Positions 3,238-54,964 of a stretch of DNA of 64,000 nucleotides are shown here, piece by piece (within the stretch, counting starts at the first letter, position 1; each line of letters starts with the position of its first letter). The position numbers and the translations under genes were made by a program. The stretch is from an uncultured Gemmatimonadaceae bacterium (GTDB taxonomy: Bacteria > Gemmatimonadota > Gemmatimonadetes > Gemmatimonadales > Gemmatimonadaceae): NCBI GenBank assembly GCA_963817955.1, contig CAWFQK010000002.1, positions 736,001 through 800,000 of the forward strand. The letters are read 5' to 3'. Under the pieces are notes generated by a model, which saw only the letters and a program-made list of their open reading frames with translations, ran no database searches and was not told the origin of the DNA.

Positions 3238-3260
3238 CGAACCGGCACAGCGCGCCGGCC

Positions 3261-3650
3261 TGTCATCCTGAGCGAAGCTTGTCATCCTGAGCGAAGCGAA
3301 GGATCTCGGTGACCGACAGAACAGCTTTTGAACGCAGAGGTCGCAGAGAACTGCAAGAGAGAACTGCAGAGGACTGCAAAAGAGAACTGCAAAAGAAGAC
3401 TGGAAAAGGGAACTGCAAGAGAGAACTGCAAGCGTACGGAAGAGGGAAGCGCGTATCGGTGGAATGAACTGTGATTGCCGAGTCCACAATCATTCCGCCT
3501 ATATCGTTGATGATCCCGACCTGGGCGATACCATCGGAGCGTCACGGCATCATCCACGACTTCCTGGCGAGACAATCCTTCACGGTCCTCTGCAGTTCTC
3601 TCTTTGCAGTTCTCTGCGACCTCTGCGTTCAAAGGCTGTTCTGTCGGTCA
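3261..3650. mobile_element. palindromic element copy A (non-autonomous, GxxExxY-deletion derivative)
   Basis: Two TGTCATCCTGAGCGAAGC units at the left end. Inverted arms 3310-3374 / 3585-3650 (1 mismatch, 1 gap). AACTGC tandem array. Core matches the 5' end of the GxxExxY gene (MIVDSAITVHS on the minus strand). Confidence 0.8.
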
Positions 3651-4286
3651 GTTCGACAGTCCCTTGGGCCGGCGCGCGAGCGGTACGGGTCGGCTGATCA
3701 CCCCGGCGGGGGCCTCGGCTACCCAGACATCGTTGTCGCGGGCGATCTCCATGAGATCGGCGGGCACGGGCATAGCCGTAGGTCCAAGCATACGGCCGCC
3801 CGGCTTGAGACTCGCACGCAACGACGCGATCATGGCGCTATCCGCCGCTGCGTCAACGGCAACGCCGTCCGCAGTGCCCGGCGCCACCGGCAAGCTATGT
3901 GATAAGACGATGGACACACCGTCGCCACTCACGACGCCGTCAGGCGGGTTGATCAGCAGCAGCTGGGCCGGCGACAGCCCACGCATGATCGGCGCTTGCA
4001 CGCCCCACGCTCCATGCAGCACGGCAGTCATGCGCGCCTCCGTGAGACCGAGCGCTGCGGCCAGGCGCATCGCGTCTGCCTCGGACGGATCGCTCCACGG
4101 AGCCCGGGGCACCGCCGGTGCGAATTCGACGATGCCGTGGTGAATCGGGTATTCGGCGAGACACGTGGGGCACCCGAGCGTACCCTCCTGAATGTCGCGA
4201 TCCTCGATGCGGTCCATCGACGCGACGAGCCATGTTTCCTCATGCACATTGAGACAACGAAGGAGGTCGACGAGCGGAATGAACAC
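3648..4286 (-). CDS. hypothetical protein: Trm112-like N-terminus plus degenerate methyltransferase-like C-terminus
   Basis: LLRC...EGTLGCPTCLAEYPIHHGI resembles Trm112; LRASLKPGGRML resembles a methyltransferase post-motif. GTG start at 4286. Confidence 0.55.
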   Translation of the reverse strand: MFIPLVDLLRCLNVHEETWLVASMDRIEDRDIQEGTLGCPTCLAEYPIHHGIVEFAPAVPRAPWSDPSEADAMRLAAALGLTEARMTAVLHGAWGVQAPIMRGLSPAQLLLINPPDGVVSGDGVSIVLSHSLPVAPGTADGVAVDAAADSAMIASLRASLKPGGRMLGPTAMPVPADLMEIARDNDVWVAEAPAGVISRPVPLARRPKGLSN

Positions 4287-4294
4287 GGTTCGGC

Positions 4295-5017
4295 TCAGCT
4301 GTGGGAAAGGCGAAGCTCGTCGACGTTCACGTCGTCCGGCTGCATGACCACGTAGCGGACGGCCGCGCCGACCGCCTCGGGCGAGAGCATCTGGCGCCGG
4401 GGCGTGAAGCCCGGTCGGACATCCGGATCGAACGCGTCCCAGAGCGCCGTGTCCACCGGCCCGGGCGAGACCAGCGTGGCACGCACGCCGCTGCCTCGCA
4501 GCTCGGCGCGCAGCACCTCGTGCAATGCCCGCACGCCGAACTTGCTCGCGGCATACGCGCCGTTCTCCGGAAACGTGGTGCGGTCGGCGACCGAACCGAT
4601 CGTGATCACGTGCCCGCTCTTGCGTGCTCGCATCTCGCTCAGAAACTCGTGAACGAGCAGAAAGGGCGCCACGAGATTCACATCGAGCGCGCCTCGCAAC
4701 GCGTCGGCAGATGTCTGTTCTACCGTGGCGAGCACAAAGCGCCCGGCATTGTTGACCAGTACATCCGGCGCGCCGCTGCACATGACGCGAATATCAGCGG
4801 CGGCGCGGTGCACCTCGCGTTCATCGGCGACGTCGCACGGGAGCGGCACGGCGCTCGCGCCGAGCGCGTTGGCGTGCGCGCGCAACGCGTCGCGGGAGCG
4901 TGCCAGCATGATCACGCGCAGTCCGGCGTCGACGAGCGCGCGCGCGATCTCGAGGCCGATGCCGCGCGATGCGCCGGTCACCACGGCCGTGCGGCTCGTG
5001 GGAAGGGGTGTCGTCAT
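4295..5017 (-). CDS. short-chain dehydrogenase/reductase (SDR)
   Basis: VVTGASRGIG, LVNNAG and YAASK motifs. Start overlaps the stop of the upstream PTPS gene. Confidence 0.9.
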   Translation of the reverse strand: MTTPLPTSRTAVVTGASRGIGLEIARALVDAGLRVIMLARSRDALRAHANALGASAVPLPCDVADEREVHRAAADIRVMCSGAPDVLVNNAGRFVLATVEQTSADALRGALDVNLVAPFLLVHEFLSEMRARKSGHVITIGSVADRTTFPENGAYAASKFGVRALHEVLRAELRGSGVRATLVSPGPVDTALWDAFDPDVRPGFTPRRQMLSPEAVGAAVRYVVMQPDDVNVDELRLSHS

Positions 5018-5427
5018 CGACCGTCGTATTCCGCGTAGTTGTTCGGCGTCTCCCACAACACGAGACGGGTGAGCCGCGCGGGTCCGATGGCGGGCTCGAG
5101 CACGCGCCACATCGCGACGACGATGTTTTCCGTCGTTGGAATGACGTTGCGCATGAAATCGACTTCAAGGTTGAAGTTCTTGTGGTCCACCTTGTCGACC
5201 ACTTCGCGCTCGATGATCGCTTTCAACGCGCGCAGATCGATGACGTAGCCGGTCTTCTCGTCGACCGGTCCCGTGATCGACACGTCGAGCATGTAGTTGT
5301 GCCCGTGCCAGTTCGGGTTGTTGCACTTTCCGAATAGCGCCGCGTTCTCCGCATCGGACAGCGCGGGGTTGTGGACGCGGTGCGCCGCGTTGAAGAGCAT
5401 GCGCTTGGTGATCGTGACGTTCGGCAT
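5014..5427 (-). CDS. 6-pyruvoyl-tetrahydropterin synthase (PTPS/QueD family, CX5HGH type)
   Basis: FNAAHR, GKCNNPNWHGHNY, DHKNFN, TTENI and WETPNN motifs. Confidence 0.9.
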   Translation of the reverse strand: MPNVTITKRMLFNAAHRVHNPALSDAENAALFGKCNNPNWHGHNYMLDVSITGPVDEKTGYVIDLRALKAIIEREVVDKVDHKNFNLEVDFMRNVIPTTENIVVAMWRVLEPAIGPARLTRLVLWETPNNYAEYDGR

Positions 5428-5460
5428 GCGCGGTCGACGGTTCAGGGATTACCGGAACGA

Positions 5461-5495
5461 AAGAACGAGCCCCGTGGGGTTAACCACGGGGCTCG
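5461..5495 (-). terminator. intrinsic terminator-like hairpin upstream of the PTPS gene
   Basis: 12-bp perfect stem CGAGCCCCGTGG / CCACGGGGCTCG (5466-5495), followed by TTCTTT on the minus strand. Confidence 0.55.
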
Positions 5496-5715
5496 AAAAT
5501 TCGGTCCGGAGAGGGTTTTGTGAAGCCCAGTCGAATAATGAGGCCCTCACCATCAACCTTCCGCCTTCCCCCGCACTGGGGGCATGACGTCGGTGATAGA
5601 TTATCGAACCCACCCGGTGGACTTGTTGGCTCAAAAACGGTTTTCTCCGTCCCGAGTAGCTTGCTTCTGTCGTCCTGAAACGCAACTTATAGCCCAACAA
5701 AGGACAGGTCAATAA

Positions 5716-5883
5716 ATGGATATCGGCTTGCTCGTAGGCATTGCGCTGGTGGTGATTTGGGGAATTGGCGCCTTGCTATTTAATGGTCCCGGGTGGATAC
5801 ATCTGCTGCTCACCGCAGGCGTGTTCATCATCATCTGGCGAATCGTCGTGCGCGGCGACCGCCGACATCCGGCGTCCAAGTAG
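5716..5883 (+). CDS. small membrane protein (lmo0937/DUF5670-like), not in the ORF track
   Basis: 55 aa, MDIGLLVGIALVVIWGIGALLFNGPGWIHLLLTAGVFIIIWRIVVRGDRRHPASK. Two hydrophobic helices with a G-W-I-H-L-L motif; AGGA/AGGT upstream. Confidence 0.75.
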   Translation: MDIGLLVGIALVVIWGIGALLFNGPGWIHLLLTAGVFIIIWRIVVRGDRRHPASK

Positions 5884-5902
5884 CCTCTGCGCCGTGCGCC
5901 GC

Positions 5903-7135
5903 TCAGCGCACGACGAGAATGAGTGTCATGATACCCCAGAGTAGAGTCAGGAGTGTCACCGGCACTCCCGCCTTGAGATAGTCGCCGAAGCTCATCCGTT
6001 CACCGCGCGCCTCCGCTCGCTCGGCGACGATCAAGTTCGCCATCGACCCGAGCAGCGTGAGATTGCCGGCGAATGTCGAACTCATCGCCATCACGAGCCA
6101 GACGAATGTCGGCGCCGCGACTTTCGGCACCACCGGAAGCCAGAGAATCACCGCCGGCACATTCGACACGATATTGGAGAGCGCTACCATCGCGGTCGAC
6201 GTCACGATCGCGTCGTGCACCGCCGCACCATGCAATTGCGCACCGGCGGCCGAGGTGAGCGACGCGACGACCGGCAGATCCCGCGCGCCGCGCATCACCA
6301 CGAACAACGCGCCAAAGAAGAGGAGCAACGACCACTCCACCTTCGCGAACGCTTCCGCCGGATCGCGTTGGGCAATTGCCACGAGGATTGCCGCCGCCGT
6401 GATCGCCACCAGCGGGAGCGATAAGCCGGCGAGCCAGCAGACGAGCGCGCCCGTGAACACGGCCAGCGACCGCATGACGAGTGTCCGATCGAATGGCGCA
6501 TCCGGCACGATCGCATGCTTGGGTAATGACACGCGCAGCGCGTCGCGATGCAGCCACGCCAGTACGCCAAACACGATCGCCAATCCGCCGAGCGACGGCA
6601 GCGCCAGCGACACGACGAAACGCGCGAACTGAATTCCGCTCGCCACGCCGATCAGCATGTTCTGCGGATTGCCCATTGGCGTCATGGCGCTGCCCACATT
6701 TGAACCCAGCGCAATCGCCAACAAGAATGGAAGCGGTCGAACGCCAAGCGGCCGCAGCACCGCCAGGATCAACGGCGTGAAGATCAGGCAAATCGTATCG
6801 TTCACGAAGAACGCCGACAACAGTCCGCTCGCGAATACGACGGCGGCGAGCAACGTGCGCGCCGATCCCGCACGCACGACGATATGCCGGGCCGCCCACT
6901 CGAAAAAGCCGCCGGCTTCGAGGAAGCCGGTCATCAGGAGCACACCGAGCAGGAACACCATGACGTCGAGGTCGATCGCCGCGTATGCATCGTGCAGCGG
7001 CAACCCGCCAAGCGTCACCATCGCCACCGCACCGAGCAATGCGGCGGCCGGTCGGTTCAGACGGAGAAACGGCACCTGCTGGATGGCGATCAGCAGGTAC
7101 GTGACGACGAGAATGACGAGTCGTGTGGTCGCCAA
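5903..7135 (-). CDS. ArsB/NhaD (CitMHS/SLC13-like) anion permease
   Basis: Highly hydrophobic; SAFFVNDT, SNVGSAMTPMGNPQN, SNIVSNVPA and STFAGNLTLLGSMANLIV motifs. Confidence 0.85.
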   Translation of the reverse strand: MATTRLVILVVTYLLIAIQQVPFLRLNRPAAALLGAVAMVTLGGLPLHDAYAAIDLDVMVFLLGVLLMTGFLEAGGFFEWAARHIVVRAGSARTLLAAVVFASGLLSAFFVNDTICLIFTPLILAVLRPLGVRPLPFLLAIALGSNVGSAMTPMGNPQNMLIGVASGIQFARFVVSLALPSLGGLAIVFGVLAWLHRDALRVSLPKHAIVPDAPFDRTLVMRSLAVFTGALVCWLAGLSLPLVAITAAAILVAIAQRDPAEAFAKVEWSLLLFFGALFVVMRGARDLPVVASLTSAAGAQLHGAAVHDAIVTSTAMVALSNIVSNVPAVILWLPVVPKVAAPTFVWLVMAMSSTFAGNLTLLGSMANLIVAERAEARGERMSFGDYLKAGVPVTLLTLLWGIMTLILVVR

Positions 7136-7198
7136 CTGGTGCTAATGGCCTTCGCGAAGGTTCGGTGACACGGGGGACACGGGTTACATGGGGGATGG

Positions 7199-7773
7199 GA
7201 CACGAGACACGCGAAGCGCTGTCATCCTGAGCGAAGCGAAGGATCTCTGGGAACGATAGACCAGCTTCTGAACGCAGAGGTCGCAGAGAACTGCAGGAGA
7301 ACTGCAAGAGAGAACTGCAAGAGAGAACTGCAAGAGCGAACTGCAAGAGCGAACTGCAAGAGCGAACTGCAAGAGAACTGGAAAAGGGAACGGCAAAGAC
7401 AACTGTAAGCGTACGGAGGACGGAAGCGCGTATCAGTGGAATGAACCGTGAATGCCAAGTCCACAATCATTCCGCCTGCAGCGTCAATGATCCCGACCTG
7501 GGCGATACCATCGGAGCGTCACGACGACATCAGCCCAGTCTTCCAGGCGAGACAATCCTTCGCAGTCCTCTGCAGTTCTCTTGCAGTTCTCTTCTCTGCG
7601 ACCTCTGCGTTCAAAAGCTGGTCTATCGTTCCCAGAGATCCTTCGCTTCGCTCAGGATGACAAGCTTCGCTCAGGATGACAAGCTTCGCTCTGGATGACA
7701 AGCTTCGCTCTGGATGACAGCGCTTCGCTCCGGATGACAGCGCTTCTCGTGTCTCGTGTCTCGTGTCTCGTGT
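7199..7773. mobile_element. palindromic element copy B (non-autonomous, GxxExxY-deletion derivative)
   Basis: 71-bp inverted arms 7220-7290 / 7592-7662 with 1 mismatch. About 10 AACTGC-type units, five 19-20 bp REP-half tandem units at 7645-7741, outer GACACGA/TCGTGTC 7-mers, and a GxxExxY 5' remnant. Confidence 0.85.
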
Positions 7774-8166
7774 TCAGGGCGGATCGCGAACGAACGCGCT
7801 GCTCTGATTCATTACCTGGGCGATTCTGAACTCGACGACCTGCCCGGGGTCAACGGTCAACCCGGACGTGACGGCGTTGCCGCGTCCACCGATGGGTGTC
7901 GCGACGATCACGACCTGCTGACCGTATACCAGCGACCAGGGCACCGAAAAACTGCCGGTCGAGTTTCCGTTGACCGAACCAAGCCGCCGCGACATGCTGC
8001 TCGCCACGAATGACAGATTCATGGCCAGAAAATTTTCGTTCTTTACATGCACGGTGATCGGTTCCGGGAGCGGCTCCTCATCCACACCCGGCTGATGCCG
8101 CGAACAGGCCGCAAGCGCCACGATCATGGCGATCGCCAACCGCCGAGGCGTGCGCCGCCGCATCAT
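7774..8166 (-). CDS. hypothetical lipoprotein
   Basis: MMRRRTPRRLAIAMIVALAAC is a basic-hydrophobic signal with a lipobox. Confidence 0.7.
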   Translation of the reverse strand: MMRRRTPRRLAIAMIVALAACSRHQPGVDEEPLPEPITVHVKNENFLAMNLSFVASSMSRRLGSVNGNSTGSFSVPWSLVYGQQVVIVATPIGGRGNAVTSGLTVDPGQVVEFRIAQVMNQSSAFVRDPP

Positions 8167-8167
8167 G

Positions 8168-9139
8168 TCAGATCTCCCAATTGGACAACACGAGCCCATG
8201 GTCCGGCCGCTGCTCTTCGAAGCCGCCGTACGACATGCGCAAATCCGTCCATCGGACATGCCCGCCGAGCGCCACCATGCGCTGGTACACGAATGGGAAT
8301 TCACCTTGCACGCGGACCGCGACTCGCCGCGTCCCGCTGCGCCGCGCGAAGTCGGCCACGGCGCGCAGCAGCGCGTCGAACCGCGACTCAGCGTCGACGA
8401 CCAGCTTCAGGACGCGCAGTTCCTCCCGAATGCGTCCCTCGACCAGCGGCGTCGTATGCGCCAGGGCAAACCCAGCGATGCGATCTCCGTCATAGAGCAA
8501 CACGGTGTCGCCCAGTGAAAGCTCGCTGGTCAGGTTGAGCTCCCGCGTATAGTCGTATCCCGAAAGCAACTGCTGCGCGAGAGCGTGACACTGGGCGATC
8601 GCGTCAGCCCTGGCTTGGGGCGATAAGCGGGAGAGCACCTTCGCGGGCATGTCGTCATACGCCGACTCCACGGTCACGGTGATCGTCAACCGCCCAGGAA
8701 GAAAGCCGAGGCGCGAATAGAAACCGATGTTGTCCATCGTGCGCGGCATCGTTTCCAGACCGATGACCGCTGCGCCATGCGCACGTAGCCACTCGACGCC
8801 GTGCTTCACGATCTCCTTCCCCGTTCCGCTGCCCTGGTACTCCGTGCGCACCGCCAGTGGTCCCATCCAGCCTTCGGTGCCCGAACGGTGCACCATGTTG
8901 AATGCGACAATGTGACCACGCTCATCGCGCCAGAGCATGGCCCCTTCGTCAGCGTCCTCGATGGCGTACCGCCAGATGGCCGGATTCAGGAAGGGAACGC
9001 GGACGCCCACCATGCCGTCGCGGCGATACCGCTCGGTGAATGAATCGCTGAAGACCTGATTCAGCTCGCCGATATTGTCGATCTGCGCGCGGAACGGTCC
9101 ATCCACCGTCTGTTGCCGCCAGGAACGTGAAGTCGCCAT
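8168..9139 (-). CDS. GNAT family N-acetyltransferase
   Basis: LAVRTEYQGSGTGK acetyl-CoA motif and FYSRLGF. Start overlaps the rad50 stop by one base. Confidence 0.8.
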   Translation of the reverse strand: MATSRSWRQQTVDGPFRAQIDNIGELNQVFSDSFTERYRRDGMVGVRVPFLNPAIWRYAIEDADEGAMLWRDERGHIVAFNMVHRSGTEGWMGPLAVRTEYQGSGTGKEIVKHGVEWLRAHGAAVIGLETMPRTMDNIGFYSRLGFLPGRLTITVTVESAYDDMPAKVLSRLSPQARADAIAQCHALAQQLLSGYDYTRELNLTSELSLGDTVLLYDGDRIAGFALAHTTPLVEGRIREELRVLKLVVDAESRFDALLRAVADFARRSGTRRVAVRVQGEFPFVYQRMVALGGHVRWTDLRMSYGGFEEQRPDHGLVLSNWEI

Positions 9140-11583
9140 CAGTCAGCCGCTCCCGCTTGAAGATCCAGCGCCACGCCACGCGCCGCGCTGTCCGTCTCGA
9201 CGCGCGAGACGCCCAACTCCTCGTTGTACTGCATCGATACCACGCGATCCAGACCTTCACGTACCGACTCGATATGCGTGATCAGAATGACCTGCTCGAA
9301 GCGGTCCTGCAGCCGGCGCAACAGATCCACGACGTTGTGCCGCCGCGTCTCGTCGAGCGAGCCGAAGACCTCGTCCAGAATGAGAAGCGAGAACGCCTGC
9401 CCCGCACGTTCCGCAATCATCTCTGAGATTGCAAGGCGGAGCACCAGGTTCGCCAGGTCCTCTTCGCCGCCGGAGATCACCGGCTTGGGAATCGCGTCCT
9501 CCACCATCGTCACATTGTACTGCTCGTCCAGCTCGATGCCACTGTACCGGCCGTCGGTGAGATCGCGGATGTATTGGCTGGCGCGATCGCAGATTTCCGG
9601 GCGCAGCTCCTGATTGAGGTCGGTGCGCAGGTCGCCGAAGGCGCGATCGAGCTCGTCGTGCAGCCGACGGTCGCGATCGAGCACCGCGAGCCGCTCCAAC
9701 CCACGCGCCAGATCCGCGCTCGCCTGGTTGGCGCTCTCGAGCGCCGCCCGGGCCGACGCCAACTCCGCTTCGGAGCTCACGGCCGCGAGTTCGGAGGTGC
9801 GCAGCTCCGCCGCGGCCGCCTCGTACAGGTCGCGCATCTGCCCGAAGCTCTGTTCGGAGAACGTCAGCAGCTGCCGTCGTTCGCCGAGTGCGGTGATACG
9901 CGCCGTCGCCTGCTCCAACGCGGTGCGAACGCGCTCCCGATCAGCAAGCAGCTGCGGCTCGCGCTCGAGTTGCCCGTTGAGACGCGCGCTGAGGTTTGCC
10001 AACGGCACCAATCGCTCGACCAGCGCTCTCACCTCAGCGTGCCTCGTGGCGTCGTATACGACGGAGATGCTCGCGAGCTCGCGTGCCAATGCCGTGTGGC
10101 GCTCCTCCTTCGTCACGATGTCACGAGTGATCGATGCGAGCTCCTGCACCGCCGTCTGTACCCTGACCAGACGGCGCTCCATCTTCGACGCGTTCTCAAA
10201 GGCCAAACGCCGCCGCTCGCCGAGCGCCTTGATCTCTGGCGGCATCTCCTGGAGCTGCTCGATACGGGCGCGATAGTACTTGCCATCCACAGTAATCGTG
10301 TCGATCTGGCTCTCGAACAGCTCGAGCACGGTGCGGAAGTGCGTCCCGAGCGGCCGCGCGCAGATGGGACAGATCCCGTTTTCGCCGAGGTCGATCACGT
10401 GATTGCGATTCTGTTCGGCCTCGCGGAGCTGATCGAGCAGAGCCTGCCGCTTGGTCTCGGCTTCCTGCTTGTCACGAATCCAATCGTTCTGTGCGGTTTC
10501 CAGGTCCCCCTGCACCTGAAACAGCTCGGCGCGCGCCTGCTCGAGGGCCGTCGCGGCGTCTGCCTCCAGCGTCGGGGCACTCTCGATCTTCGCGCGCCGC
10601 TCGCGAATCCGGTCGAGCTCTTCACACAAGGAGGCATCCATCTCGGCCAAGGTGCGGCGCCGCGAGTCCTCGTTGCAGCTCCGCTCGAGCTCTCGCAGCG
10701 CAGCCTGCAGTTGGGGTAGAGGGGCGAGATCCACCGACAGCCTCGCCAGCTCAGTGCGTGCCGCCGCGGTCTCGGTGAGCTCTCGCTCGATCCGGGACAG
10801 ATCGCGGTGAGTGGAGGCTCGCTCCGCCTCCGCGAGGCGGATCTCCGCGAGCAGCTGCTGCATGGCATCACGCGCGCGCTGGATCGTCTCCCATTGCGGA
10901 GTAAGCGCATCGAGTGCCTGGCGAGCGATGCCTCGCCGTGCCGTCATTGCCTCGGCGGCCGCGTGGGCTACCGTCAGACGCGTCGTGGCACCGGCGACCG
11001 CTCGCTTTACCATCTCGGCGTCGGGCATCGCGACCCGTACACCCGACGACTCCGCGATGATCGCCTTCTTTCGATCACGCACAAGCGTTTGCGCCGTCCG
11101 GAGCCGCTCGTAGCCGAGCACGCGCGACAGGAATTGCGCGCGCTCCGCCGGCCCCATCGCGGCCATGATGCTCAGTTCTTTCTGGCCGGTAAAGTACGTG
11201 TTGAAGAATTCCTGCTGCGTCATGCCGAGCCGGCGCCGCAGGAAGTCCGTCACGCCCGTGATGGAATTCGCGACCGGGGCCGAACCGCCGTCGAGATAGA
11301 CTTCGGCGCTCGTCAATCCACGCGCAACGAAATACCGGTGGCCGCCGAGCTCGAAATCGAGCTCCACCTTGACCTGCGCACGAGCCGGCGCGCGGTACGC
11401 GCGAATGGACTCGCGCGTGCCGCGCGCGGCGGACGTGCCATACAGCGCCCAGGCGATTGCTTCGAGGATCGTAGACTTTCCCGCGCCATTCGGCCCGATG
11501 ATGCCCGTAATGCCAACGTCGAACTCGATCCGGGTATCGAGGTGCTGCCGAAAGTTGCAGAGCCGCAAACTGATGAGGCGCAT
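9139..11583 (-). CDS. sbcC: Rad50/SbcC SMC-family ATPase
   Basis: Walker A GPNGAGKS, long coiled coil, zinc hook CPIC, signature ISGGE, Walker B LILDEVFGSLD, ILITH. Confidence 0.92.
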   Translation of the reverse strand: MRLISLRLCNFRQHLDTRIEFDVGITGIIGPNGAGKSTILEAIAWALYGTSAARGTRESIRAYRAPARAQVKVELDFELGGHRYFVARGLTSAEVYLDGGSAPVANSITGVTDFLRRRLGMTQQEFFNTYFTGQKELSIMAAMGPAERAQFLSRVLGYERLRTAQTLVRDRKKAIIAESSGVRVAMPDAEMVKRAVAGATTRLTVAHAAAEAMTARRGIARQALDALTPQWETIQRARDAMQQLLAEIRLAEAERASTHRDLSRIERELTETAAARTELARLSVDLAPLPQLQAALRELERSCNEDSRRRTLAEMDASLCEELDRIRERRAKIESAPTLEADAATALEQARAELFQVQGDLETAQNDWIRDKQEAETKRQALLDQLREAEQNRNHVIDLGENGICPICARPLGTHFRTVLELFESQIDTITVDGKYYRARIEQLQEMPPEIKALGERRRLAFENASKMERRLVRVQTAVQELASITRDIVTKEERHTALARELASISVVYDATRHAEVRALVERLVPLANLSARLNGQLEREPQLLADRERVRTALEQATARITALGERRQLLTFSEQSFGQMRDLYEAAAAELRTSELAAVSSEAELASARAALESANQASADLARGLERLAVLDRDRRLHDELDRAFGDLRTDLNQELRPEICDRASQYIRDLTDGRYSGIELDEQYNVTMVEDAIPKPVISGGEEDLANLVLRLAISEMIAERAGQAFSLLILDEVFGSLDETRRHNVVDLLRRLQDRFEQVILITHIESVREGLDRVVSMQYNEELGVSRVETDSAARGVALDLQAGAAD

Positions 11584-12774: not shown

Positions 12775-12806
12775 GCGGCGTTGTGGCTTCGCCGTAATGT
12801 AACGCG

Positions 12807-13640
12807 CTATCGCCGCTCGAGGGTGTGCATGTGCTGCGTGATGCGCATCTGCATGTGCATCGACGTCACGCCCGCGCCGGCCGGCGGCGTGACTGTGGAG
12901 GTCACCAGAATACTGAACCACGATTCGGTGAGCCATCCGCGGCGTTGATCGACCAGCATGGTGCCGTTCACGAATCCCTTCTCGAGCACCGCTCCCAACG
13001 CGGCCCCCGGACCGGTGGCCGGTTGCATTTCGCCGCGCATGGACACGAACGCCCAATCCCCGCCGTGCGTGAGCGAGTCGAGCCGGAAAGTGACATGCAG
13101 CCGGGCGGTGATCTGCGCGCCGAGCTGACCGCTCGTTGGCAGGGGCATCTCGCGGATCCAGCTTTCGCCAACCTTGATCCGTGCTTTGGGAAATGCCGCT
13201 GGCATGAGCGAAACCACTTGCGCCACCTCGCTCGGCGCGCCGTCTTCCGCGCCGCTCATGCCGACCATGCCGTCAGGCGCCACACGGAAGCGCACGCGCT
13301 GACCGCGCATCTGCTCGGCTGCGGCCGACGCCGCCGCTCGGGTTCGATCGTCCGTCGTGAACAACAGCACGGAGTCCGTTACCGCCAACAGCGTCGTGCT
13401 CTTCTCGGTTGCCGCCTCCACGATGGCGCGAGAGAACATCTTCATGCTGTTCACCATCATCGCGGCAGCTTCACCGTTCGGGGTGCGCTTCACGCCCGTC
13501 ATTTCGCTCTGCTGATCGAGACGCATGCGCAGCGTATCGCCGACGTGCGGCTTGATCTGCAACATCACGCTCTGGCCCCAGGCGCGTCCAGCGGCAAAGA
13601 CCAGCAAACCGGCGATGCGGCCGAGTCGTGCACGACGCAT
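12807..13640 (-). CDS. hypothetical secreted protein
   Basis: N-terminal signal peptide (MRRARLGRIAGLLVFAAGRAWG); beta-rich pattern. Confidence 0.65.
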   Translation of the reverse strand: MRRARLGRIAGLLVFAAGRAWGQSVMLQIKPHVGDTLRMRLDQQSEMTGVKRTPNGEAAAMMVNSMKMFSRAIVEAATEKSTTLLAVTDSVLLFTTDDRTRAAASAAAEQMRGQRVRFRVAPDGMVGMSGAEDGAPSEVAQVVSLMPAAFPKARIKVGESWIREMPLPTSGQLGAQITARLHVTFRLDSLTHGGDWAFVSMRGEMQPATGPGAALGAVLEKGFVNGTMLVDQRRGWLTESWFSILVTSTVTPPAGAGVTSMHMQMRITQHMHTLERR

Positions 13641-13646
13641 ACGGTA

Positions 13647-15653
13647 TCAGAACCCGTACGGGTCGTCTACCGGAGCCGAGCGAACGGGAGCCACCACGGG
13701 TGGTGTAACGGTCTGCGCCGCAACCATGGGGCGGAGCTGCGACAAGAAGAACTTCCGTACATCGGCCGGGCGCTCGCGCACCGTCGCGTTGCGCGCACGT
13801 ACGATTTCGTCTTCCTCGCGGATCCCGATCGTGGCCTGCACCCAGCCAAGGGTAATGGTCGGATCGAGCGCGCGCAGACTACGCACGACCGCCGCCTCGA
13901 GATCGATGTCTACCGCTTGTGGGTACTGCTCCGCGCCATCGCGCCCGCGCATGATCGCCGGCCGCGGAAAACGCACGAAGATCGGCTGCGTGAAATGTGG
14001 ATGTCGCACCATGAGCTGGCCTTTCCCCAGCGTCGCGAGTTTCGTCTTCACGGCCGGACTCAGCACCGCGTACCCCGGCGTGGCCAACTCGTCGCCGTCC
14101 ATGCGACCGTAGAGCGCCGTGCCCGAGTTCCCAACGACGCGCCGATGGACCTGCGAGCGAAATTGCTGCGCACTGAACAGCACGAGTCCGAGATACCGGC
14201 CCCGCTCGGCAAGGTCGAGCAGCATCTTTCGGACGTAGGTGTCCTGCCCATCGTTCGGCGCATACTTGTTCAGCTCGTCAACGAAGACCACGACGTGATT
14301 CACGCCGAGATCGCGCTTCTCGAGGTGTTCGCGAAGTTTGGTGACGACACGCGCAAAGATCAGATCTTGCGCGGCCTCCTCGAGCGAGGCGACGTCGATG
14401 ACGTACACCGTGCGGTCCTGAAAGCTCCCGAATGGTAGATCGCTCACCGCTCCGTCATCGGTAACCAGCCCGGCACACCGAGTCGAGATGTTCGAGAGGC
14501 GGTTCCGCACCTTTCGGATCGTGGCCACGTGGTGCGTACGCCAGCCTTCGTTGCCTTTGTTCTCCATGGCGGAGAGCACATCGCGGAACCATTCCTCGAG
14601 GTCGGCAAACGAGCGAACGAGGTACCGCTTGTTGCCCAGGAGTTGGTCGCTGAAATCACGATCGACGACACGCTCGCGAATGAAGTCGATGAGCGCGTCG
14701 GCCTTGGCGTCCACGTCATCCTTGTTGAGCAGCACTTCCGCGTACTGCAGCACCTCGCGCAGCCCCCAGGTGAGCGACGACACGTTGTGCAACAGCGCGT
14801 CATTGGAGCGCAAGGTGTTCAACGAGAAGCCGTCGGCCTTGTACGGCGCAAAATATTGAACGTTCTCGAACGGCCCGGCGGGAACACCACATTGCTCGTA
14901 CAGCTCTCGGTCCTCCACACCGATCTCACCTGGTTGATCGAGAAAGCAGAGGTCCGGCCCCTTCACATTGAAGCACACGGCAGCGACGGATCCCTTCTGC
15001 TCTGGAAAGTGGGCGAAGATCGATGACAGGATCCACTCGATGGCACTCGTCTTCGTGGCGAGACCGGAAACACCCGTGATGTTCAGGTGGGCCGCCTCGG
15101 GACCGAGCAGAAAATCCGCGTCGAGGTAGATCGGAGCGTCCGTGCCCCCTGCGCGATACACACCGACCGGAATTCCCGTCCGCGACTCTTCCTTCAGATA
15201 ACTGTCCATTCGCAGCGCAACGGCAACGTCGTCGGTTGTCGCGAGAAACACCTGACCCATTGGCACCGGCTGTAGGGGCTCTTCCGGCAATTGCCGGAGG
15301 ACGGCCGCCGAGTACAGACGGATCTCGGCGCGCTGCGTGGCGGCGAGCGACGCACGGGCCGGCGTGCCGTCGTGGCCCAGGACGTCGTGCAGTGGGGTCT
15401 GAAGATCCGTGTAGCTGAACCCTTCCACCACGATGCCGAAGATCTGCGGGATTTGCCCACTCACGGGCTGCGAGCCCTCTACGCGCACGATCGTCCCGAT
15501 TCCAACCGGCGAATCGAGCGCTGTCCAAAAATGGAATTCGTGCGGCGTATTCGGCTTGCGCTCGGTGGCAACGACACGCCCAAGGGGAGTGGCGACTGGC
15601 GCGTCTTCAGCAATGCCCATTGGCTCTCTCACCTCGGATGTCCGTTCGTCCAT
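13647..15653 (-). CDS. herA: HerA/FtsK-family ATPase (HerA-like)
   Basis: N-terminal HAS-barrel-like region, variant Walker A HLNITGVSGLATKT, Walker B VVFVDELNKYAP, ERGRYLG and SAQQ. Confidence 0.8.
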   Translation of the reverse strand: MDERTSEVREPMGIAEDAPVATPLGRVVATERKPNTPHEFHFWTALDSPVGIGTIVRVEGSQPVSGQIPQIFGIVVEGFSYTDLQTPLHDVLGHDGTPARASLAATQRAEIRLYSAAVLRQLPEEPLQPVPMGQVFLATTDDVAVALRMDSYLKEESRTGIPVGVYRAGGTDAPIYLDADFLLGPEAAHLNITGVSGLATKTSAIEWILSSIFAHFPEQKGSVAAVCFNVKGPDLCFLDQPGEIGVEDRELYEQCGVPAGPFENVQYFAPYKADGFSLNTLRSNDALLHNVSSLTWGLREVLQYAEVLLNKDDVDAKADALIDFIRERVVDRDFSDQLLGNKRYLVRSFADLEEWFRDVLSAMENKGNEGWRTHHVATIRKVRNRLSNISTRCAGLVTDDGAVSDLPFGSFQDRTVYVIDVASLEEAAQDLIFARVVTKLREHLEKRDLGVNHVVVFVDELNKYAPNDGQDTYVRKMLLDLAERGRYLGLVLFSAQQFRSQVHRRVVGNSGTALYGRMDGDELATPGYAVLSPAVKTKLATLGKGQLMVRHPHFTQPIFVRFPRPAIMRGRDGAEQYPQAVDIDLEAAVVRSLRALDPTITLGWVQATIGIREEDEIVRARNATVRERPADVRKFFLSQLRPMVAAQTVTPPVVAPVRSAPVDDPYGF

Positions 15654-15656
15654 CGT

Positions 15657-16679
15657 TCACATCACCGCTCTCAAGAACTCCTCACAATCACGAATTCCAT
15701 AAACCATCTTGTCCCAGCGCGAATCAGGGAGAGCGTTCGGAGCGGATTCGGCGAGAATCCAGCGCGTCACCTCTTCGGCCCGTGCCGCGATATTCCGCTC
15801 GTTCAGCTCAGGCGGACTGGCAACTTCCACGCGCACCAGCCCCCACATCGGATCGTGTCCCGCCGGATCGCGTAGTCGCATGTACCAGCTGGCGACCGGC
15901 GTACGCTTGGGCGACGTAATCTGAAACACGCTCGTCCGCTCGCCCGCGCGCAGCCGAAAGACCACCTGCAATCCCTCCCCCTCGGCATAGAGCGTACGAT
16001 GGCTCTTCACGACACCGACGACACAGCGCTCGGTAGCCACGCGGTCGTTGGCGCTTATGCCACCGTCAATGAACAGCGGCTCTCCCACAGTGCTGCACCA
16101 TTCTTCAGCCAACCGATGCTCGGCGCGCTCCCGGTCCTCCTGCACTTTGTGAATCGCGGCGTCGCGCACGGCAAACGGATGTTCGGCGGCCGCGGCCGAT
16201 GTGGTAGCGGCGCTGGTGTCGACGATCCCGGCGCCGAGCGCGTCGAGCGCCGAGTTCCACTGATCGGATAGCAGCTGGCGTGGCGCATACACCCGCATCG
16301 ACACTTCGTGCCGCCAGGTCGTCATGCGCCGGGCTTTTCGCACACGCACGACGGCTGCGACCTTTCCGACGATGAGCGGCAACCCGTTGGCGTACTGCAG
16401 GACGCGACTTTCCTGGGTGCCATCCAGAAAAGCGCAGAACCCGGTAGTTTCGCCGGCCTCTTGCGGCTCCACAGCCGACGCTCGCAACGCCGATCCCTCG
16501 ATCACTGCGGCGCTGATGAGACGCGCCGGCTCCGTCTGTGTTCTGGCGGCCTCGAGCGAGGGACCGTCCCCAACAGTACCGCTCACGCCCGCGTCGGGCA
16601 GCAGCGTCGCCAACTGACGCTGCAATGCTCGCAGGCTGAGTCCCGGCGTGGATGTGAGTTGGGTGGAAACGACCGACAT
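15657..16679 (-). CDS. nurA: NurA-like nuclease
   Basis: AFLDGTQ, LFIDGG and VVGVVKSH motifs (RNase H-like NurA pattern). Lies immediately upstream of herA. Confidence 0.65.
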   Translation of the reverse strand: MSVVSTQLTSTPGLSLRALQRQLATLLPDAGVSGTVGDGPSLEAARTQTEPARLISAAVIEGSALRASAVEPQEAGETTGFCAFLDGTQESRVLQYANGLPLIVGKVAAVVRVRKARRMTTWRHEVSMRVYAPRQLLSDQWNSALDALGAGIVDTSAATTSAAAAEHPFAVRDAAIHKVQEDRERAEHRLAEEWCSTVGEPLFIDGGISANDRVATERCVVGVVKSHRTLYAEGEGLQVVFRLRAGERTSVFQITSPKRTPVASWYMRLRDPAGHDPMWGLVRVEVASPPELNERNIAARAEEVTRWILAESAPNALPDSRWDKMVYGIRDCEEFLRAVM

Positions 16680-16714
16680 TGCGAAGGATGCTAACGTCGG
16701 CGCCGGCCCAAGCG

Positions 16715-16993
16715 CTATTCCACCCCGATGTCCCACGCCTGCTGCAGGTCTTTCCTGGAGTACGCGCGGAATGCGGTGAGCGTCTGGGTGCGTTGAATGC
16801 CGGGAACGGTGGGGAAAACCTCCGTCACCACATGCGCGATCTGATCGTACTGCGGCACCCGCACGATGGCGACGAGATCCCAATCGCCCGACACGGAGTA
16901 CACCTCAGCCACCCCCTCGACGCCGGCGAGCATGTTCGCGGCGGAGGGAATGAGCGTCGGGTCGACACGAATGAGCACGATGGTTGTGATCAC
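16715..16993 (-). CDS. Lrp/AsnC ligand-binding-domain protein (no HTH)
   Basis: 92 aa; EVYSVSGDWDLVAIVRV and GIQRTQT match the RAM domain. Confidence 0.85.
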   Translation of the reverse strand: MITTIVLIRVDPTLIPSAANMLAGVEGVAEVYSVSGDWDLVAIVRVPQYDQIAHVVTEVFPTVPGIQRTQTLTAFRAYSRKDLQQAWDIGVE

Positions 16994-17084
16994 GACTCAG
17001 TGAGACTAGAGGGAACGTTGAGCAGCCACAGACCTGAAACCTGGCTCATCTCATCTACATGGAGAAGCAGACCGCGGGCAAGCG

Positions 17085-18275
17085 CTAAGATATATGGGCA
17101 GCAATGATCCGCCGCACCCCCTCATTCACTTGTTCCTCGGGGGCGGCGTAGGACACGCGAATCCACTCCGGCGACCGGAAGGCGACCCCAGGCACGACGG
17201 CGACTGCGTGGTCGTCGAGGAGTCGCCGAGCGAAAGTCGTTCCGGGCTCGGCGTTCTCCGCCGTTACATCGCCAACACGGATGTACAAGTAGAACGCGCC
17301 CTGCGGTTGGATGACTTCCATCCCCGCCTGCCGGAGACAGGCGAGCGCGGAATCACGCCGCTGCTTGAATTCGGTCACCATCCGCTGCGTCGAGACGCTC
17401 GCCTCGGTTTCTGAGGAAAGCGCGGCCAACACTGCGTGTTGCGACAATGTTGCTGCATTGGACGTCGTGTGCGACTGTAACGCCGTCATGGCGCGAGACA
17501 GCCATACGGGCGCAATAGACCAACCGATTCGCCATCCCGTCATGGCGAACGATTTGGCTACTCCGTCCACCACCACCAACCGGTCCAGGTTCAGCGCAAT
17601 CGACAGCAGCGAGGGCGCTTCGCCATCGTACGAGATGGCCCGGTAGATCTCGTCGCTCACGATCCACCAGCCACGCTCTTCCGCGCAGGCGACGATGTCC
17701 CGCAACTCATCGCTCGAATACACGGCGCCCGTCGGATTGCACGGGGAGTTCAGCATGATCCCGCGCGTTCTCGGTGTGGCCGCCTTCACCAGATCTGTTG
17801 GCGAAACCTTCAATTGGCGCGCGCGCGAGCCGCGCACGATCACCGGAACCGCGCGGGCGAGGGCGATCATCTCGTAGTAGCTCGTCCATGCGGGCGTCGG
17901 CACGAGCACCTCGTCGCCCCCCGCGAACAGCGAGAAGCAGGCGTTGAACAGTGCCTGCTTGGTGCCGGCGGTCACGACCACCTGATCCGCCACGATCGGT
18001 GGCCCTGAGTGGAGGGCCGTGGCGCGTTCGGCGATACGCTGACGCAGCGGAAGAATGCCTTCCACCTGCGTGTAGCGCGTCGCCCCGGCATCCAGGGCGC
18101 GCTGAGCTGCCTCCATGACGAAAGGAGGCGTCGGAAAATCCGGTTCGCCGGCGCCAAGGTCGATCACGGAACGACCGGACGCGCGCATCGCCTTGGCCCG
18201 AGCGGACACGGCGATCGTCGCCGATTCGCGCAGGTCGGCGACGTTCGCGGAGAGTTTGTCTTGTTTGGTAGCCAT
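17085..18275 (-). CDS. aspC: PLP-dependent aspartate aminotransferase (class I)
   Basis: GAGEPDF, NSPCNPTG, SDEIY and AKSFAMTGWRIG motifs. Confidence 0.88.
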   Translation of the reverse strand: MATKQDKLSANVADLRESATIAVSARAKAMRASGRSVIDLGAGEPDFPTPPFVMEAAQRALDAGATRYTQVEGILPLRQRIAERATALHSGPPIVADQVVVTAGTKQALFNACFSLFAGGDEVLVPTPAWTSYYEMIALARAVPVIVRGSRARQLKVSPTDLVKAATPRTRGIMLNSPCNPTGAVYSSDELRDIVACAEERGWWIVSDEIYRAISYDGEAPSLLSIALNLDRLVVVDGVAKSFAMTGWRIGWSIAPVWLSRAMTALQSHTTSNAATLSQHAVLAALSSETEASVSTQRMVTEFKQRRDSALACLRQAGMEVIQPQGAFYLYIRVGDVTAENAEPGTTFARRLLDDHAVAVVPGVAFRSPEWIRVSYAAPEEQVNEGVRRIIAAHIS

Positions 18276-18356
18276 TATTGGGACCGGGAACGGCAGCGGA
18301 CTATACTTCACGGCGGTCTCGCCAATCATAACGAGAGGCTATGGGGCCACGCCACA

Positions 18357-19940
18357 ATGACGGGGATGGGGGTGCTGGTGGAACAGGAAGGACGTGAAAT
18401 CGCAGGAGTATCTCGGGGTCAGAACGCGGTCTATGTGATGCCGCACGACTGGGCATCGATGTCCCAGTTCCTTTCTCCGTTGGTCGAACGAATCGACGAG
18501 CAGACGCACGCCGTGCAGCTCCTCGTGCTCACCCCCGACTCGGAGGTCGCCACCGCGGTGACGGCCGCCGCGGTGCGGCTCACCGAAGGACGCGACGTCG
18601 GCATTCTCGCCGCCACATCCACGCGACGTTCGGCGCGTCTGGTTCGGTTACGTCCGCCGCATGTCATTGCGGGTCCTGCTGACATCATTCTCGAGCTCGT
18701 CCGCGCCGCTGCCATCAAGCTCGACACGGTTCGCATGCTTTGCATTGCCTGGGCCGACGAGCTCATGACCCAGGCGACGCCGGAGTCGCTGGAAGCGCTG
18801 ATGACCGAGCTTCCGAAGGACGGAGCGCGCATCGTCGTCACGTCGGAGCTCACGCCGGCCGTCGAGGCCCTCATCGAGCGGTACGCACGCCGCGGCCGCC
18901 GAGTCGGGCTGCCGATCAGCGAAGCGGATCAGCCGACGCCCGTCGGCTACGTCACCGTGTCGCCACAATCGCGCCTGTCAGCGCTACGGCGTCTGCTCGA
19001 TGAAGTCGATCCTGCGTCGGCGCTGGTATTCGTGCGGGACAGCGTCAGTGCGTCGGAAGTCGGCAATCTGCTGCGCGCTTTGGGCTACAGTGGGAGCGAC
19101 GCGCCGATTCGAGTCGGGCTCACTGCCACGCCGGGCATGGACCTCGTCGTGCTGTTCGACCTGCCAGCGTCCCGCGAGGAACTCCGCGGAGCTGTCGGCG
19201 CTGCTCCGCGCAGCATTGCACTCATTCAGCCACGCCAATTGGCCAGTTTGCGAGCGCTGGCAGCTGGTGGAACCGTTTCCTCGTTCACGTTATCCGAATC
19301 GGGAACCCGGGTTCGGGAGCGCGAAGCTCGCATGCGCGCCGAACTGCGCGATGCGCTGGCGCAGGGACAGTACGGTCGCGAGCTCCTCGCGCTCGAGCCA
19401 TTGCTCGAGGAATACGACGGCATCGAGATCGCCGCCGCCGCGCTGCAGTTGCGCGATCGCGATCGCGCAACGCATGCCGCGGCCGCACAAAGCGCGGCGC
19501 CGGCTCCGCGCGAGCGGAGTACAGAGCGGAGCGCCGAACGGGGCAACGACCGTGATTCGGCCGGTATGGTGCGCCTGTTTGTGAGTGTGGGCTCCCGCGA
19601 CAATGTACGTCCGGGCGATCTTGTTGGCGCGATCGCGAATCAGGGCGGCGTAACGAGCGCTGAAGTCGGGAAGATCGACGTGCGCGAATCGCACTCGATC
19701 GTCGAAGTCGCGTCGAGTGTCGCCGATTCAGTGATCGAGCGGGTCACGGGCGTTTCGATCAAAGGCCGGCGCGCGGTACTCCGCCGCGACGAGGAGCGCC
19801 CGCCGCGCTCCGGACCGTCCCGCAGTAGCGATCGCGCCGGCGGCGCTCGGCCGCGAGGCGCACGATCGGATTCGACTCGCGAGTCGCGCCCGAGAAGTGG
19901 ACCGCCCCGGGGCCGGCCGCGGCGCGGAGATGGCGAGTGA
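18357..19940 (+). CDS. degenerate DEAD-box-like protein with C-terminal DbpA RNA-binding domain
   Basis: Collinear with DeaD/CsdA but the catalytic motifs are lost. [23 protein letters not shown] is the DbpA RBD; Arg/Gly-rich tail. Start uncertain (18357-18378). Confidence 0.75.
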
Positions 19941-20557
19941 TCTCCGACGGCTACTTCTCGGGAGGAGCCGCTGGTTGGATCGAGGTGATCTGCGGCGTGA
20001 TGTTCAGCGGCAAGAGCGAAGAGCTCATTCGCCGCGTACGCCGCGCGATCATCGCGAAGAGAAAAGTGCAAGTGTTCAAGTCCCATCTCGACGAGCGGTA
20101 CGCCGGTATCTATCACATCTCCAGCCACGATGGGCGCTCGGTGGAGGCGGTGCCAATCGACACACCTGAGCAGATCGGACAGCTCATCGAGTCCGACACG
20201 CAGGTGGTGGCGATTGACGAGGCGCAATTCCTCGACGCCACGATCGTAGATCTGGTGACGTCGCTCGCGAACCGAGGTGTCCGCGTCATCGTCGCCGGCA
20301 CGGACAATGACTTTCGCGGGGAGCCATTCGGCCCCATGCCACAGCTCCTCGCTATCGCGGAGGTCGTAGACAAGCTCCATGCGATTTGCGTGATCTGTGG
20401 CAATCCGGCCAGCCGCAACCAGCGCCTCATTGCCGGGAAACCGGCACGGTACGATTCGCCGACCATCATGGTGGGCAGCACCGAGTCATACGAAGCCCGG
20501 TGTCGCGCCTGCCATTCGGTGCCGCGACGCGACGAAGACCAGGTCCGGCTGCTCTGA
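19937..20557 (+). CDS. tdk: thymidine kinase
   Basis: [22 protein letters not shown] and YEARCRAC motifs. Confidence 0.95.
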
Positions 20558-21065
20558 CACGAGACACGGGATGCCCGTCGCCCCGAGCGATGTCTGTCAT
20601 CCTGAGCGAAGCGTGTCATCCTGCGCGAAGCCTGTCATCCTGAGCGAAGCGAAGGATCTCTGCGACCAAAAGAACAGCATTTACCACAGAGCGGCCCAAC
20701 AGCTTTTAACGCAGAGGTCGCAGAGAACTGCAGAGAACCGCAGAGGACCGTGAAGGATTGTCTCGCCTGGAAGTCTTGGATGATGCCGTCGTGATGCTCC
20801 GATGGTATCGCCCAGGTCGGGATCATTTAACGATATGGCGGAATGATTGTGGACTCTGCAATCACGGTTCATTCCACCAATACGAGCTTCCCTCTTCCGT
20901 ACGCTTGCAGTTCTCTATTGCAGTTCTCTTCTGCAGTTCTCTTGCAGTTCTCCTGCAGTTCTCTGCGACCTCTGCGTTCAAAAGCTGTTCTGCCGGCCAC
21001 AGAGATCCTTCGCTTCGCTCAGGATGACAGGCTTCGCGCAGGATGACAGACACCTCGTGTCTCGT
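20556..21065. mobile_element. palindromic element copy C (non-autonomous, opposite orientation to A, B and D)
   Basis: Tandem TGTCATCCTG(A/C)GCGAAGC units at 20595-20660, mirrored at 21002-21048. AACGCAGAGGTCGCAGAG arms. GxxExxY remnant on the + strand (ATG 20843, MIVDSAITVHS). Outer GACACGA 7-mers. Confidence 0.85.
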
Positions 21066-28610: not shown

Positions 28611-28669
28611 GCCCTGCGGAGCATGCCCTCGAGCTTGTGACTCCTGTCCAGCACTATTTCAACAGGCTG

Positions 28670-29335
28670 CTAACCGCGCGTCGTATACGCCAGGGTGAGG
28701 AATTCCTCTCGCGTACGCGGATCGGAGCGGAAGAGGCCCCGTAGCGCGCTCGTGATGGTCTTGGAGCTCTGCTTCTCCACGCCGCGCATCATCATGCACA
28801 GGTGGTAGGCCTCGATCACCACGCCCACACCCATGGGGTTGAGCACGTCCTGGATTGCCGTGGCGACCTGCTCGGTGAGTCGCTCCTGCACCTGAAGTCG
28901 CCGGGCGAACACTTCGATCAGCCGCGGAATCTTGCTCAGGCCGACGATCTTGCCGTTCGGGATGTAGGCAATGTGCGCGCGGCCGTAAAATGGCAGCATG
29001 TGGTGCTCGCAGAGGCTGTACAGCTCAATGTCGCGCACCATGACCATGTTGCTCGCGCCATCCGCGTCGAACAGCGCTCCATCGACGATATGAGCGACGT
29101 CCATCTCGTAGCCCCGCGTGAGCCACGCCAGCGACGTCGCGACACGGTCTGGCGTGCGCAACAACCCCTCGCGGTCGGGATCCTCGCCAAGTAGCTCGAG
29201 CTGGCGCCGCACCAGATCGCGAAACTCGTGGTTCGAGGACCCACTCTCAATGAACTCCTCGGGGGAAGCGGTCACGGAATCTCCGGTGAGGGGCATTGAA
29301 TCTTGCATGGTTTCTCGAGGGACGTGGCTGCTCAT
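28670..29335 (-). CDS. folE: GTP cyclohydrolase I
   Basis: [39 protein letters not shown] and HLCMMMRGV motifs. Start may be 29308. Confidence 0.95.
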
Positions 29336-54963: not shown

Positions 54964-54964
54964 T

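Follow-up and report, generated by a model that had tools for sequence, protein, structure and literature searches.

How does a piece of a gene that can no longer make a protein come to stand at many separate places in one genome? The question is raised by a 64,000-nt stretch of DNA (the window; positions 736,001 to 800,000 of contig CAWFQK010000002.1, GenBank assembly GCA_963817955.1) from an uncultured Gemmatimonadaceae bacterium. Three short elements in this window, copies A, B and C, carry the beginning of a GxxExxY-family gene between inverted-repeat arms, and a fourth, copy D, carries the whole gene. A first reading of the sequence (the original prediction) held that A, B and C share one internal deletion, that this deletion arose once, and that the shortened element then multiplied and diverged to a high genome-wide copy number, mobilised in trans like a miniature inverted-repeat transposable element (MITE). 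In the 4.53-Mb assembly to which the window belongs (9 contigs, 94% complete, 4% contamination) we found 42 copies with this deletion (class 1), 10 elements with a different deletion (class 2), and two full-length cassettes, D and E. We lean, without great confidence, towards the view that the remnants of both classes spread in trans, most likely through the PD-(D/E)XK nuclease of the full-length copies. Window coordinates are used for A to D. The three short copies of the window are:

3261 to 3650, minus strand: copy A, class-1 short element; core of 156 nt at 3431-3586, junction between 3460 and 3461
Copy A, arm layout: outer 18-mer modules at 3261-3297, GAAGGATCTC, inner inverted repeat, arrays of AACTGCA words, core; the 5' arm is without its outer module
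7199 to 7773, minus strand: copy B, class-1 short element; core at 7408-7561, junction between 7437 and 7438
Copy B, layout: heptad runs, outer 18-mers (five on the 5' arm, one on the 3' arm), inner repeat; the arms are about 110 nt long and near-perfect
20556 to 21065, plus strand: copy C, a class-1 short element inverted with respect to A and B; core at 20747-20905, junction between 20875 and 20876; the neighbours are convergent genes

Read in the orientation of the remnant, each of the three runs through an arm, an upstream region of about 85 nt that matches the region upstream of the copy D gene, 19 codons of that gene, a post-junction sequence, and the other arm. The remnant ends in GTTCATTCC and is joined directly to ACCGATACG in all three, so that the shared junction and the retained parts are as the original prediction described them; the sequence beyond the junction, ACCGATACGCGCTTCC..CGTACGCTTGCAGTT, differs by a few substitutions per copy. 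The inversion of C relative to the others was also read correctly, the remnant lying on the plus strand in C and on the minus strand in A, B and D. In the window the outer-arm 18-mer is present 16 times where 0.06 occurrences would be expected, and the likeness among the window copies is far beyond chance.

The core of copy A used as a query matched 48 places in the genome. Forty of these are near-complete short copies, one is a 5'-truncated short copy, and two are the halves of a single short copy split by an IS3-family element; the remaining places are the two full-length copies (D, and E at contig 2:315.6 kb) and three short 5' pieces belonging to class 2. Counting the truncated and the split copy, class 1 totals 42, the same as the number of occurrences of a motif that spans the junction, and the high copy number of the original prediction is borne out. 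The short elements are approximately 300-640 bp long. The IS3-family insertion (contig 8:4750-6187, locus L058) has an HTH_Tnp_1 open reading frame (ORF) and an rve integrase ORF.

A MAFFT alignment of the 40 near-complete short copies places the breakpoint at the identical position in every one of them. The short copies also have substitutions in common that are absent from both full-length genes, and their divergence from the class-1 consensus averages 6.4% and ranges from 2.7 to 12.6%; the two most similar copies differ by 0.5% (99.5% core identity). At the position of the GTG start codon of D, where GGG had been noted in A, B and C, 32 of the 40 read GGG, four GTG, three GAG and one GGA. 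A gene piece and one shared junction in each copy firmly establish that the gene-less copies descend, through a single deletion, from a cassette that carried the gene, and that they then multiplied and diverged.

When we examined 96 flanking segments of 800 nt, 86 had no second match in the genome, and the other 10 had only paralogue-level matches (64-75%) at places without a copy; the flanks are thus unique rather than parts of segmental duplications that carry neighbouring genes along. Comparison between species then showed the sites of A, B, C and D to be empty in congeners. At site A the convergent neighbours are 5-93 nt apart in five congeners and 399 nt apart here; at site C the distances are 11-143 nt in 14 congeners and about 560 nt here; and at site D they are 35-85 nt in the three congeners in which both neighbours are adjacent, against about 830 nt here. 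Copy B fills the spacer between two co-directional genes, and at this site all five relatives examined have at most 20 nt between the upstream stop and the next start and no arm motif, so that copy B looks as if it had entered an operon.

We found none of the 52 loci inside an ORF, by crude in-house gene calls with a filter on third-position GC content (GC3). At 32 loci both neighbours are no more than 300 nt away; 16 of these lie between convergent, 14 between tandem and two between divergent genes, the rows for D and E counting their own gene. The elements are intergenic, mostly at the 3' ends of genes. They are moderately clustered, with 20 adjacent pairs no more than 25 kb apart against 12.0 +/- 2.7 expected (P 0.0036).

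Outside this genome the short core was absent from all 40 other genomes searched, 24 of them of the same genus. A search of 185,579 species genomes with the junction pattern returned only two chance matches, in unrelated coding DNA, and metagenome contigs yielded none; a pattern of inner-repeat words found 15 metagenome loci that share only 24-50 nt and have no related gene or core. In two soil DNA runs 6-10% of the words were present, on short contigs at approximately 2-3x depth; apparent joints in these runs were considered as excision products and turned out to be hairpins of other organisms with the same outer module. Class 1 multiplied at unrelated and previously empty intergenic sites and, on these comparisons, in this species only. 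The same descent and multiplication hold for class 2, and two genes under selection survive with the same arms.

The intergenic site of copy A, downstream of a fadD orthologue, has been occupied more than once. Three congeners (G017, G015 and G046; loci L052-L054) carry a different and only distantly related GxxExxY cassette there, with 31-36% identity and arms of the CGGATTTCGCGGAG type, and in a fourth (G021) a small hairpin of outer-module type stands at the site.

Could the remnant itself still encode something? The start codon is missing at the gene-start position in 36 of the 40 short copies, and the synonymous share of core substitutions is 25%, equal to the 25% expected at random; the class-1 remnants are therefore non-coding. 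A hidden small ORF was rejected on the same synonymous share and on frames that break at variable places. We also considered a conserved RNA in the 156-nt core and rejected it: RNAalifold gave -14 kcal/mol with no gain from covariation on either strand, and the single-sequence z was -1.7. Rfam had no match at the gathering score in the window, to ribosomal RNA (rRNA) or otherwise, and none for 3200-7800 at E values up to 1.

The gene that the remnants have lost is intact in copy D:

27895 to 28590, minus strand: copy D, full-length cassette, an intact gene enclosed by inverted-repeat arms of the same modular kind
28005 to 28382, minus strand: ORF of copy D for a GxxExxY / PD-(D/E)XK nuclease; 125 aa, beginning with GTG, with catalytic E27/D67/E77/K79

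The D gene matched TIGR04256 (E 2.7e-39, 134.1 bits, cut-off 35) and PF13366 (PDDEXK_3; E 8.8e-38, 129.7 bits, cut-off 22). Only two intact GxxExxY ORFs were found in the genome by tblastn, those of D and E, and both proteins carry G24, E27, Y30, D67, E77 and K79; in 21 homologues from the genus the residues G24, E27, D67, E77 and K79 are invariant and Y30 is present in at least 90%. The full-length cassette is about 700 bp long, and this 125-aa PD-(D/E)XK protein is its single ORF, with no DDE, HUH, serine or tyrosine recombinase. The AlphaFold model, of high confidence (pLDDT 94.8), has Cas4 4ic1 (E 1.3e-3, TM 0.54), lambda-exonuclease and RecB-type nucleases as nearest structural neighbours in Foldseek, so the predicted fold is Cas4/RecB-like; a sequence search of the PDB gave zero matches to the nuclease, and PADLOC gave only weak Cas4 matches (E 0.006). 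A scan for promoter and terminator consensus around D found none, and no canonical terminator tail. The GxxExxY/PDDEXK_3 family is widespread; it is listed with unknown function in one source (PMC3424549) and mentioned in passing in another (PMC8934634).

The D and E genes differ at 22 of 378 nt, and because 17 of these differences are synonymous and 5 are replacements, the protein is under purifying selection. Codons 3-19, the part kept by class 1 (window 28326-28376; contig 2:315996-316046), show zero differences where about two would be expected by chance, and codons 20-24 have five synonymous differences; this gives only a hint of constraint at the nucleotide level. This region of D and E contains a hairpin, GGAATGATTGTG..CAAGGTTCATTCC. 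The closest relatives of D (71-72% identity; L055-L057) occupy one orthologous locus in three species (G017, G046 and G024), so that such cassettes can evidently also pass vertically for long periods. Their arms are made of GCAGAG/GCGGAG words, and directly downstream in G017 and G046 there is a gene-less hairpin of the same words.

Class 2 clarifies how class 1 arose. Its 10 elements have the same arms and share a different junction, GTGACGCTCGGAG joined to TCGCGCAGCTGAGAG; what remains in them is about 55 nt inward of the 5' arm, the final 16 or so codons of the gene, a degenerate stop codon and the 3' untranslated region (UTR). This UTR reads TTCCACC.ATACGCGCTTCCCTCTT (also given as TTCCACC.ATACGCGCTTCCC) and is the post-junction sequence of class 1, which implies that the class-1 deletion took out everything from codon 20 to the stop codon and two bases more. 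The resemblance of the post-junction sequence to what follows the stop codon in D had been seen correctly from the window, and it is clearer through the class-2 UTR, the ancestral version being degenerate in D and lost in E. The endpoints of the class-1 deletion are a TTCC at codon 19 and another TTCC just past the stop; such paired words are the signature of a microhomology-mediated deletion. With a junction of its own, the class-2 deletion is independent of that of class 1. In class-2 copies (for example contig 7:63960-64350) a 15-nt unit, TGAGAGATGGGATCA, in the retained 3' end of the gene varies between one and three tandem repeats.

What the two deletion families, D and E have in common is their arms. 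Each element is a nested palindrome of layered repeat modules, with arms of 80-150 nt whose alignments show terminal inverted repeats. The layers, from outside inward, and two further features of the window are:

Outermost layer: one of three, namely an 18-bp repeat termed Z, heptad runs (GGGACAC)n and a third module
Second layer: one to eight copies of TGTCATCCTGAGCGAAGC
Third layer: GAAGGATCTC
Fourth layer: one to three units of ..AACAGCTTTTGAACGCAGAG..
Innermost layer: arrays of the word A(A/G)CTGCA at intervals of mostly 10-13 nt, with 0-6 words in the 5' arm and 1-11 words in the 3' arm
28620 to 28680, minus strand: Z module next to D, AGCAGCCTGTTGAAATAG plus TGCTGGACAGGAGTCA...; Z also borders 16 of the 40 class-1 copies
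54880 to 54965, plus strand: solo outer module, a (CGGGACA)n run and then TGTCATCCTGAGCGAAGCGAAGGATCTC, without an inner cassette

The predicted stems are very stable: B folded as DNA gave -185 kcal/mol (z -19.9), and D folded as RNA gave -375 kcal/mol (z -14.3). Among the 40 class-1 copies, nine carry the outer 18-mer with GAAGGATCTC on both sides, 23 carry it on a single side and eight have it on neither. The 18-bp Z consensus is AACAGACTGTTGAA(A/C)TA, and Z bounds composites of approximately 550-850 bp around many class-1 copies; it was found within 450 nt on both sides of nine copies, on one side of seven and on neither side of 24. The inner cassette occurs in at least four outer contexts, and the closest class-1 pair has the same core with different outer modules, the switch lying inside the 5' arm. 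Because the same core sits in different outer contexts, the unit that spreads or is exchanged is the inner palindromic cassette. The two arms of one element differ by 7.6 mismatches and arms of different elements by 8.6 (7 of 5000 permutations were as low), which we consider too weak to count as concerted evolution of the arms by a hairpin-templated mechanism.

Since the remnants cannot make a protein, the function that copies them would have to be supplied in trans, and to this extent the claim of mobilisation in trans stands. The nuclease is the obvious candidate, being the only gene that the cassette ever carried, and that it drives the spread is the best-supported inference. One ancestral cassette lost codon 20 through the stop codon by a single deletion between the two TTCC words. 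The target of the nuclease could be the long palindromic arms, either folded into a hairpin or cruciform or recognised by way of the AACTGCA words, whose spacing of one helical turn suggests binding of a protein on one face of the DNA. Break-induced copying of a homing-like kind, or else transposition of the inner palindromic cassette, might then yield new copies. Retained in both deletion families are the arms together with about 55 nt inward of the 5' arm and about 25 nt in front of the 3' arm, and these common parts are probably the cis-acting sites. A homing-like break with repair from a filled copy fits better than cut-and-paste, given the mosaic copies and the lack of a target-site duplication.

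Several observations weigh against spread by the nuclease of D and E. These two genes each differ from the short family at no fewer than seven fixed positions around the start codon, and with these differences and no ancestral 3' UTR neither is the direct parent of class 1; no such parent was found in the species genomes or metagenome contigs searched. The nuclease is a minimal one of 125 aa without an evident DNA-binding or strand-transfer domain, and the papers found on the GxxExxY family show no mobility role for any PD-(D/E)XK protein of this family. We found no target-site duplication at the ends of the inner repeat, the outer modules or Z, where ambiguous boundaries would leave room for a duplication of 2 bp, and nested modules blur the ends of the elements. 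The mosaic copies show recombination between copies, so some of the spread may be gene conversion between sites that were already furnished with arms. Finally, Z borders 16 of the 40 copies on at least one side, and this repeat could belong to another mobile system.

The observations on mosaicism lead to a competing explanation, in which host homologous recombination or gene conversion, with no dedicated enzyme, copied the cassette between hairpins through shared arms and the gene was cargo. In this genome the outer 28-mer has 80 matches and some 40 outer modules stand alone; these numbers, the clustering of copies, the lack of target-site duplications and the switch of outer modules within the 5' arm of the closest pair are all as this explanation would have them. 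However, the whole composite, outer modules included, is missing from sites A, B and C in congeners, so that the arms had to arrive too (the site B spacer is at most 20 nt in five of five relatives), eight copies are without an outer module on either side, and purifying selection on two genes is unexplained if the gene is idle cargo; we consider this explanation unlikely, if worth keeping in view. An unrelated transposase, encoded elsewhere or since lost, might instead act through other terminal repeats such as Z, with the remnant as a passenger. The nine copies with Z on both sides and seven with Z on one, a small empty Z-to-Z element at contig 4:1672102, and one pair of copies similar over the whole Z-to-Z unit speak for it, and the flank beside Z is mostly T-A, as at the ends of elements of TA-duplicating transposon families. 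Yet the 24 copies without Z within 450 nt stand in other outer contexts, no Z pair is more than about 0.85 kb apart and thus no autonomous Z element is present in the assembly, no Y1/RAYT gene was found, and the amplification of two independent deletion derivatives points to the cassette's own ends; we rate a foreign transposase as quite unlikely.

The copies might also be kept because the hairpins serve the host, as REP-like terminators, stabilisers of mRNA, protein-binding sites or structured RNA, with the gene remnant incidental. The extreme stability of the stems agrees with this, as do the position of all 52 loci outside ORFs with 16 convergent, 14 tandem and two divergent settings among 32 (by the crude gene caller) and the conservation of the outer 28-mer across families of the order. 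Such a function is compatible with the other readings and leaves the origin of the copies unexplained, though, and the details do not favour it: the core has no consensus structure or covariation, Rfam offered nothing even at E 1, there is no canonical terminator tail, the core substitutions look neutral, and congeners do without the copies at these sites. We regard it as improbable. To segmental duplication, or to the same deletion recurring at a hotspot in many full-length copies, we give hardly any credence; the TTCC microhomology could in principle favour repeated deletion, but the flanks are unique, the short copies share substitutions that both full-length genes lack, full-length copies number only two, and the sites are empty in relatives.

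Spread driven by the nuclease may also be compared with known systems. MITEs are non-autonomous internal-deletion derivatives of transposons (PMC11602168; PMC3189936, PMC6382973). The elements described here resemble them in being small, non-coding, bounded by inverted repeats and present in many dispersed intergenic copies, in deriving from a gene-carrying element by loss of its middle, with two deletion families that share ends. The ends and the subterminal parts recur in the two gene-carrying copies, D and E, whose gene encodes a nuclease. The elements differ from MITEs in that the only gene of the parent is a 125-aa PD-(D/E)XK nuclease rather than a DDE, HUH, serine or tyrosine transposase, and in having nested arms of 80-150 nt with tandem words. 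The description as MITE-like is therefore fair for their behaviour, while a target-site duplication and a known parental transposase, which go with MITEs, were not found.

REPIN-RAYT systems combine hairpin-forming extragenic repeats with a RAYT gene flanked by such repeats (PMC3116915, PMC3337134). Here, too, there are tens of extragenic hairpins, and the same repeats flank one or two protein genes; the elements are likewise confined to a lineage and prefer the 3' ends of genes. Unlike REPINs, which contain no pieces of the RAYT gene and consist of two inverted REPs of approximately 20-25 nt, these elements carry the 5' end of their gene and have much longer arms of nested tandem modules. A search for Y1 HUH/RAYT (PF01797) found no match in the 94%-complete assembly; the same search was positive in 6 of 14 control genomes.

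Intervening sequences of 23S rRNA likewise hold a small ORF within the loop of a very long stem, but all 52 loci here lie between protein-coding ORFs and the ORF is of another family. Homing endonuclease genes, free-standing or intron-borne, include PD-(D/E)XK types. Like them, a solitary nuclease gene could propagate if its product cut empty sites and a filled copy then served as template for the repair, and this would explain both the missing target-site duplication and the mosaic copies; unlike them, it would have many dispersed targets instead of one, with no defined empty target allele and no intron or intein context, and the catalytic domain of I-Bth0305I (3r3p) ranked only 45th in Foldseek (E 0.23). 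With the Cas4/RecB nucleases (SSO0001 4ic1, Pcal_0546 4r5q) the protein shares the predicted PD-(D/E)XK core fold and the catalytic residues, but at about 60% of their length it lacks an Fe-S cluster domain and stands in no CRISPR context, and the match is a weak one (E 1.3e-3, TM 0.54).

GxxExxY cassettes might thus represent a new class of bacterial mobile element, whose sole gene is a minimal Cas4/RecB-like nuclease, whose ends are long, nested palindromes composed of short words in phase, and which comes as an autonomous/non-autonomous pair that spreads in a homing-like way induced by the nuclease; this is a possibility we hold only tentatively. If so, the 42 and 10 copies would have been amplified by the nuclease of the two surviving full-length copies, and the cis requirements would map to the arms and the approximately 55 nt (5') and 25 nt (3') of subterminal sequence, the second deletion family having narrowed what must be kept. 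Copying into intergenic DNA and into other palindromes would then account for the 'Russian-doll' nesting as well as for the missing target-site duplication. The function of GxxExxY proteins becomes a question for the bench, where a pair of natural proteins, a pair of natural non-autonomous elements and sites known to be empty are at hand. Nested palindromes built much of the intergenic DNA of this genome, including insertions inside operons in the manner suggested for copy B.

The outer modules have a wider distribution than the inner cassette. Many of the approximately 40 solo outer modules run into a small GACCGG..CCGGTC hairpin. The outer 28-mer, with 80 occurrences in this genome against 0 for a reversed control, is patchy in the phylum, where it was found in 32 of 301 genomes (a tally that includes the source genome and G095). 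The outer 18-mer (window 3261-3300) reached a summed contig depth of several hundred in two soil metagenomes in which the organism itself has only about 2-3x, so the outer module is common in other soil organisms. The empty Z-to-Z mini-element (L060) is approximately 130 nt long and lies at contig 4:1672102-1672230. Another repeat family of about 95 nt, GACCGGCTGGATGTCGCTGGCTGCTCCGTA..GAGTTGTGCGTTG, with (CAACTCA)n runs on its flanks, comes after the same outer module at nine or more loci (for example contig 4:1532195, 1559632 and 1405963, and contig 9:33886), so that the outer module heads several unrelated cargoes.

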